Of a stretch of 64,000 nucleotides of DNA, positions 40,420 through 40,765 are shown piece after piece. Below the pieces are notes generated by a model. The model saw nothing but the letters and a program-made list of their open reading frames with translations, was not told the origin of the DNA and did not search any database. Position 1 is the stretch's first letter. Each line of letters begins with the position of its first letter. Source of the stretch: Escherichia coli (GTDB taxonomy: Bacteria; Pseudomonadota; Gammaproteobacteria; Enterobacterales; Enterobacteriaceae); assembly GCF_041248615.1 (NCBI RefSeq), contig NZ_CP158426.1; one strand, written 5' to 3'. A program made the translations under genes and the position numbers.

Positions 40420-40765
40420 TGGCGCTGCCAGATAGCGTTTTCGTTCTTACAGTCAATGCGCACCCGATACTGAATATCGGCTTTATTCCCCCTGGCGGTG
40501 AGATGCGCTGTGACTAAATTATCACCTTTACTTACCAGCTCACGAAGATTCACCCAGACAACAGGACGCTGCTGACTGAGGAGCACCTAGTCATCTTTCC
40601 TGTGAAGCACCTGTTTCTGGAGATAGTTCCGTTTGACGCTGGCTGAAACAGCCGATGCTTCCTGCCCTTCACATCGTGGAAAACTGACGGTTCTTTTTTA
40701 TCAGCAGCCAGTGATGATGCACAGATACCGAAGATGAGCAGAATTGAAGAGAGTGTTTTGTTCAT
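40420..40765 (-). pseudogene. Secreted protein of unknown function, frameshift plus in-frame amber
   Basis: Signal peptide MNKTLSSILLIFGICASSLA; frame change near 40690; TAG at 40587-40589 (minus strand); C-terminal ...LVTAHLTARGNKADIQYRVRIDCKNENAIWQRQG. Confidence 0.4.

Follow-up and report, generated by a model that had tools for sequence, protein, structure and literature searches.

Frameshift and amber codon in a YebF-family paralog from a decayed genomic island of Escherichia coli

Sequence comparison indicated that positions 40413-40765 (minus strand) of the E. coli DNA analyzed here, a window of 64,000 nucleotides, very probably hold a horizontally acquired gene of the YebF family in a redundant, non-functional copy, located in a decayed island by ynjA. 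The remnant corresponds to a former 117-codon gene with a Sec-type signal-peptide-like start, and when aligned to intact paralogs it measured 353 nt, compared with 354 nt in the intact copies. It has no uninterrupted frame from start to stop, because one base is deleted in the A-run at 40694-40699 and an in-frame amber codon is present at 40587-40589. No functional product would be made from this locus.

A first-pass annotation of the same DNA had described a gene for a secreted protein at 40420-40765, carrying both a frameshift and an amber codon. Both lesions were present when the locus was defined against intact paralogs and the coordinates were checked directly. The amber codon was found exactly at the position given, and the frameshift, which had been placed near 40690, was correct within 5 bases. 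The boundary at 40765 was also right, but the other one was not, as the remnant reaches 40413. Two cysteines had been described after the amber codon; the one encoded at 40449-40451 does follow it, whereas the one at 40671-40673 sits between the frameshift and the amber codon.

Frames and family identity of the remnant

The start codon and a predicted Sec signal peptide (MNKTLSSILLIFGICASSLA, then ADK) occupy 40706-40765 on the minus strand, with the putative cleavage site placed by alignment to K-12 YebF. By inspection alone, a basic n-region, a hydrophobic core and a site of the A-x-A type can be recognized in MNKTLSSILLIFGICASSLA/AD. In the alignment, the mature chain of the K-12 YebF structure (PDB 2LQV) starts just past this putative signal peptide. 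From the true ATG at 40765, a 71-codon ORF extends on the minus strand to 40550. This ORF opens with the signal-peptide-like MNKTLSSILLIFGICASSLAAD and then leaves the frame; codons 1-23 are authentic, the remainder is out-of-frame nonsense, and the ORF gave no Pfam match. The YebF-like frame resumes with an offset of 2 bases right after the A-run and terminates at a TGA at 40413-40415, also on the minus strand.

Alignment to the intact paralogs located the frameshift as the loss of a C from GA(T/A)-AAAAAC-AGAACC, with A6 remaining at 40694-40699 (minus strand). Downstream of it, in the YebF frame, the first family-defining cysteine codon (TGT in 'FPRCEG', 40671-40673) was identified by alignment and by the description of the family (PMC5821083). 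It is followed by an arginine codon, AGG, at 40599-40601, which is TGG for tryptophan in all intact paralogs and in K-12 YebF, and is a change of a conserved residue in the window lineage. The amber TAG at 40587-40589 replaces the glutamine codon CAG at codon 59, and this glutamine is also kept in K-12 YebF ('DDQ'). The second family-defining cysteine codon, again placed by alignment, is the TGT in 'RIDCKN' at 40449-40451. All of these codons are on the minus strand. The part of the frame behind the amber codon forms a 57-codon tail ORF with a GTG start (40413-40586, minus strand), which has neither the signal peptide nor the first cysteine and is annotated in RefSeq as an intact 'YebF family protein', WP_001354053.1.

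Other features were sought around the remnant. A tblastn search for a second YebF copy inside the window returned the remnant alone. Rfam models run over 39000-42000 with a lenient threshold gave only a chance snoRNA match (E=0.57, 21 bits vs 40), so no RNA gene overlaps the remnant. When 40200-41100 was scanned with promoter and terminator consensus sequences, promoter-like sites were no commoner than in shuffled sequences and none was informative for the gene, and three terminator-like matches were obtained, all on the plus strand.

To obtain a repaired protein, one base was put back into the A-run and the TAG was changed to CAG. The match of this protein to Pfam PF13995 (YebF-like protein) scored 80.1 bits, where the gathering threshold is 27, and spanned positions 1-86 of the 89 in the profile; the 57-codon tail ORF alone scored 44.6 bits against the same profile. 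The repaired protein also matched PDB 2LQV (E. coli K-12 YebF) with E=6e-21, the mature domain being 43% identical, and both cysteines and the glutamine at the amber site aligned to those of YebF. The first-pass annotation had called the family unknown and proposed a database search with the reconstructed protein; that search gave the YebF family, which is also the label in RefSeq. Among the NCBIfam models, PRK13680 gave 102.7 bits and NF041240, 'YebF_not_Cmi', gave 95.5 bits, each under its equivalog cut-off. The cut-off of NF041240 is 110 bits, which an intact paralog from PK-F-10122 passes with 116.2 bits. Because the window copy scores below it, we filed the copy as a decayed YebF-family paralog and not as an equivalog. 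On these scores the remnant is a clear YebF-family (PF13995) paralog. The YebF-family name for the locus is already in RefSeq, and the family assignment is not new.

The YebF/PF13995 domain is typified by two cysteines (PMC5821083). YebF itself is a 10.8 kDa protein that is exported by the Sec system and then released to the medium, probably via a porin (PMC6302416; likewise PMC4661593). Export to the periplasm followed by release to the medium by the OmpF/OmpC route is on record for K-12 YebF only (PMC6302416, PMC4661593). The window copy resembles K-12 YebF in its length class (117-118 residues) and in having a putative signal peptide, both cysteines, and the motifs 'DDQ', 'VxWV' and 'RGxxADIxYxVxxDC'. 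It differs in being an island-borne accessory paralog, present in about 1% of complete E. coli genomes and frequently multi-copy, whereas the K-12 gene is at the housekeeping yebF locus, and in being a pseudogene. As far as can be judged from the family, the 117-residue precursor encoded by an intact copy would be exported by Sec with removal of a signal peptide of about 20 residues. The mature protein would carry one disulfide between the two conserved cysteines and would probably exit via outer-membrane porins as K-12 YebF does.

The window copy was plausibly lost without cost while other intact copies were carried, because in the near-identical strain ECCNB12-2 a different island, next to lptG, holds a YebF paralog that is intact. 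A low-level product from the tail ORF annotated in RefSeq is a formal possibility. The appropriate annotation of the locus is that of a YebF-family pseudogene, whereas RefSeq calls the 57-codon tail an intact protein. We also noticed an inconsistency of annotation: WP_001354053.1 is called intact here, and in other genomes the sister alleles carry pseudogene flags. Beyond tidy annotation the importance of the locus is small, as it is an ordinary pseudogene of a known family.

Alleles of the paralog group and the order of decay

The paralog group was found in 51 of 5426 complete E. coli genomes, was chromosomal every time, and occupied 87 places in all, with up to 5 per genome. Some E. coli hold several island-borne YebF paralogs, several of them broken. 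A literature search for island-borne YebF paralogs or pseudogenes found nothing relevant.

To define its lesions, the window copy was compared with four intact paralogs and with two further alleles that are broken. Intact copies have AAAAACA or AAAAATA at the A-run, CAG at codon 59 and an ATG start. The window allele has AAAAAA, one base fewer, and TAG at codon 59, and retains the ATG. The allele of AR_0085 and PK8261 shares the amber codon with the window, but it keeps AAAAACA and has ATA in place of the start ATG; it is located in a separate island, adjoining genes for an AbgT transporter and an S6 peptidase. The LH50-c allele resembles the window in its 5' half, its upstream region and the neighboring deacetylase-GT4 operon, and differs in having an A8 run, which causes a +1 frameshift, and no amber codon (CAG at codon 59, ATG start). 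Among the alleles compared, the one-base deletion was confined to the window type and the ATG to ATA change to the AR_0085 type. The alleles of LH50-c and of a further locus (L012) are mosaics produced by recombination between copies.

The intact island paralogs (such as WP_045146775.1, WP_089581236.1 and WP_311820160.1; clusters P0001-P0003) were 77-84% identical to the window copy in protein and 82-88% in DNA. Some of them share the upstream region with the window, and they have the same kinds of island neighbors; they differ by AAAAACA or AAAAATA with CAG, against A6 with TAG in the window. A closer or intact form of the window allele was sought in the protein database, where the best match had 84-85% identity. 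A metagenome scan gave 4 matches, 2 of them intact with AAAAACA and 2 with A6 and TAG, and a scan of species-representative genomes gave 0. An in-frame A7 allele was not found in the sampled genomes, the protein database or these four metagenome matches.

The length of the A-run varies within the group (window 40694-40699; about 6066-6075 in the LH50-c locus, L008; L012 and L013), with A6, A8 and AAAAACA or AAAAATA being observed. YebF paralogs, intact or decayed, recur beside genes for an AbgT-family transporter and an S6-family (SPATE-type) peptidase (loci L002, L003 and L009). At L004, L007 and L008 they adjoin a dolP paralog and thioredoxin/glutaredoxin-like genes, with a DoxX gene at L004 and L008. 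These recurring neighborhoods suggest an envelope-related accessory module. In this collection, unadjusted for its overall host make-up, the carriers of the paralog alleles came mostly from chicken, chicken meat and poultry feces, and some from humans.

Selection on the copies was estimated by the Nei-Gojobori method. Among intact copies, dN/dS was 0.15-0.17. The amber alleles of the window and AR_0085 were separated by 14 nonsynonymous and 2 synonymous changes, giving a dN/dS of 2.1 from only 16 substitutions. In a binomial test, the probability of at least 14 nonsynonymous changes among 16 was 2e-5 at an omega of 0.16, which is thereby rejected, and 0.25 at an omega of 1. When the changes were polarized with intact outgroups, six nonsynonymous and one synonymous change fell on the window lineage. 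W56R, V87A and K94N were among the changes of this lineage, at residues kept in every intact paralog and in K-12 YebF. By these estimates, which come from small counts and from mosaic alleles, so that some differences may be recombination imports, the intact copies are under purifying selection and the window copy is not, its substitution pattern being neutral.

The TAG is common to the window and AR_0085/PK8261 alleles and the other lesions are private to each, which places the amber codon first and makes the second hits independent. An ancestral amber codon followed by an independent second hit in each lineage is therefore the most economical history. According to this history, CAG would have changed to TAG at codon 59 in the ancestor, truncating the protein. 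The window lineage would then have lost one base in AAAAACA, now A6, shifting the frame after codon 23, and the sister lineage would independently have lost its start codon by the change of ATG to ATA. Amino-acid changes would have followed at the neutral rate, including the loss of Trp56, Val87 and Lys94. The A6 run of the window may have arisen by direct loss of the C or via an in-frame A7 intermediate shared with LH50-c, with three events in total either way. The locus is a clean small case of pseudogene decay: a founding nonsense mutation, a separate second hit in each of two lineages, and then neutral drift.

Alternative explanations of the interrupted frame

The frameshift, the amber codon, or both could be assembly or sequencing errors in a gene that is truly intact, and homopolymer indels are frequent on some sequencing platforms. 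We give this explanation next to no credence. Among complete E. coli genomes, 29 match the 601 bases around the remnant at 99% identity or more. At least 16 of them, assembled independently and drawn from several countries and hosts, do so without a difference; among the matches listed, 16 of 17 records, from chickens, chicken meat and humans, had 100.0% identity. The same lesions, A6 and TAG, were present with further substitutions in two metagenome contigs, and the TAG is also carried by an allele that diverges by 5% and has other genomic surroundings. The reservation in the first-pass annotation that the lesions might be assembly errors is answered by these assemblies and contigs. With both lesions taken as real, a full-length secreted protein might still be made at a low or regulated level by recoding, if translation or transcription slipped by -1 on the A-run and the amber codon was read through, for example by a supE-type glutamine suppressor. 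The deletion lies within a homopolymer of allele-variable length (A6 in the window, A8 in LH50-c), and a glutamine-inserting suppressor would give back the original residue at the TAG that stands in place of CAG. However, the run in the zero frame reads GAT-AAA-AAA-GAA and is not a slippery heptamer A-AAA-AAG, the RNA 3' of it folds no better than shuffled controls (z = -0.05), and a search of the window for a suppressor found no tRNA gene. Sister alleles with the same amber codon have lost the start codon, substitutions are neutral with conserved residues lost, and the search for an in-frame A7 allele described above was negative. Recoding is thus extremely unlikely. That the A-run at codons 23-25 is a slippage hot spot, which repeatedly switches paralog copies off and possibly on, we consider very unlikely; the lengths observed are A6 and A8, compared with the 7 bases of the in-frame AAAAACA. 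If it were true, this multi-copy accessory secreted protein, found here in mostly poultry-derived E. coli, would be a contingency-like gene family, and the window copy would be one member frozen 'off' by the extra amber codon.

Two further explanations concern what the remnant encodes or once encoded. The 57-codon tail ORF at 40413-40586 would be a genuine small protein if its RefSeq annotation (WP_001354053.1, 'YebF family protein') is taken at face value; its 44.6-bit match to PF13995 and the abutting stop and start (TAG-GTG) are in line with this. The match is, however, explained by descent alone. Without a signal peptide and the first disulfide cysteine, the product would be neither exported nor folded like YebF (PMC5821083). 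Changes at conserved residues continue inside the tail (V87A and K94N), and the annotations of other genomes mark this stretch as a pseudogene, so that we judge a genuine small protein highly improbable. We are equally doubtful that the remnant comes from a Cmi-type colicin M immunity gene and not from a secreted YebF. Cmi shares the PF13995 module, and with it the fold family, and the two cysteines (PMC5821083, PMC4661593), and the repaired protein falls under the NCBIfam cut-off for YebF equivalogs (95.5 vs 110). On the other hand, Cmi has a membrane anchor and its gene is linked to that for colicin M, whereas the N-terminus of the window copy, by inspection only, resembles a cleavable signal peptide and not an uncleaved anchor; it ends in an A-x-A type site and aligns with the signal peptide of K-12 YebF. 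No colicin gene is annotated by RefSeq across the window span in a near-identical genome, nor in the five further island contexts examined. Of the named NCBIfam models, 'YebF_not_Cmi' gives the window copy its best score, and the intact paralogs pass the cut-off (116.2 vs 110). A decayed YebF-family copy is accordingly the reading that we prefer. The earlier suggestion of a former effector, toxin subunit or immunity protein was loosely right in that the family includes Cmi, but it does not fit this copy, which is 'YebF_not_Cmi' by its model and has no annotated colicin gene nearby.

The surrounding island and its other genes

In this stretch of the E. coli chromosome, chb-ast-xthA-ydjXYZ-ynjA come first and a large island follows; the window is collinear with strain ECCNB12-2 at 98.8-100% identity. 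The island starts with a tyrosine integrase beside ynjA and contains iha, remnants of an integrative conjugative element (ICE), and many IS elements and IS fragments.

Divergent to the YebF remnant, in the same island segment, genes for a polysaccharide deacetylase, a GT4 glycosyltransferase and a phosphoethanolamine transferase occupy 41614-43861 on the plus strand. All of them are frameshifted, stopped or truncated, and they carry pseudogene flags in RefSeq. E. coli LH50-c (L008) has intact forms of the deacetylase and GT4 genes, with lpxM after them; its segment is collinear with window positions 40369-43861 at 92-95% identity. The operon of deacetylase, GT4 and phosphoethanolamine transferase genes presumably resembles the ecf operon of pO157 and shf-rfbU-virK-msbB2 of Shigella plasmids.

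The first-pass annotation had also pointed to an amber codon at 22121 in the ICE remnant and to decay by point mutation in addition to disruption by IS elements. A TIGR03757-family ICE gene at 21845-22240 (plus strand) indeed contains an in-frame amber TAG at 22121-22123; it scores 115 bits across the stop and is marked 'internal stop' in RefSeq. Together with the frameshifted, stopped and truncated genes adjacent to the remnant, this bears out the point-mutational component of the decay. The TIGR03756 gene neighboring the TIGR03757 gene is likewise marked 'internal stop' by RefSeq in a near-identical genome.

Between the YebF remnant and ISEc12 (IS21-family), an intact gene of 129 codons with a signal peptide is present at 39526-39915 (plus strand), encoding a cytochrome b562 paralog. 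Its protein scored 70.9 bits with the NCBIfam model of cytochrome b562. As this is below the equivalog cut-off of 130 bits, we regarded it as a divergent accessory copy.

Two insertions of about 1.3 kb, at 25028-26341 and 32320-33634, are missing from the otherwise collinear ECCNB12-2. An SgcJ/EcaC-family gene is cut at its 3' end by the first insertion, which contains a gene for a transposase of 402 residues (25100-26308) that we take to belong to the IS256 family. Comparison of the ends indicates that the second insertion is the same element in inverted orientation.
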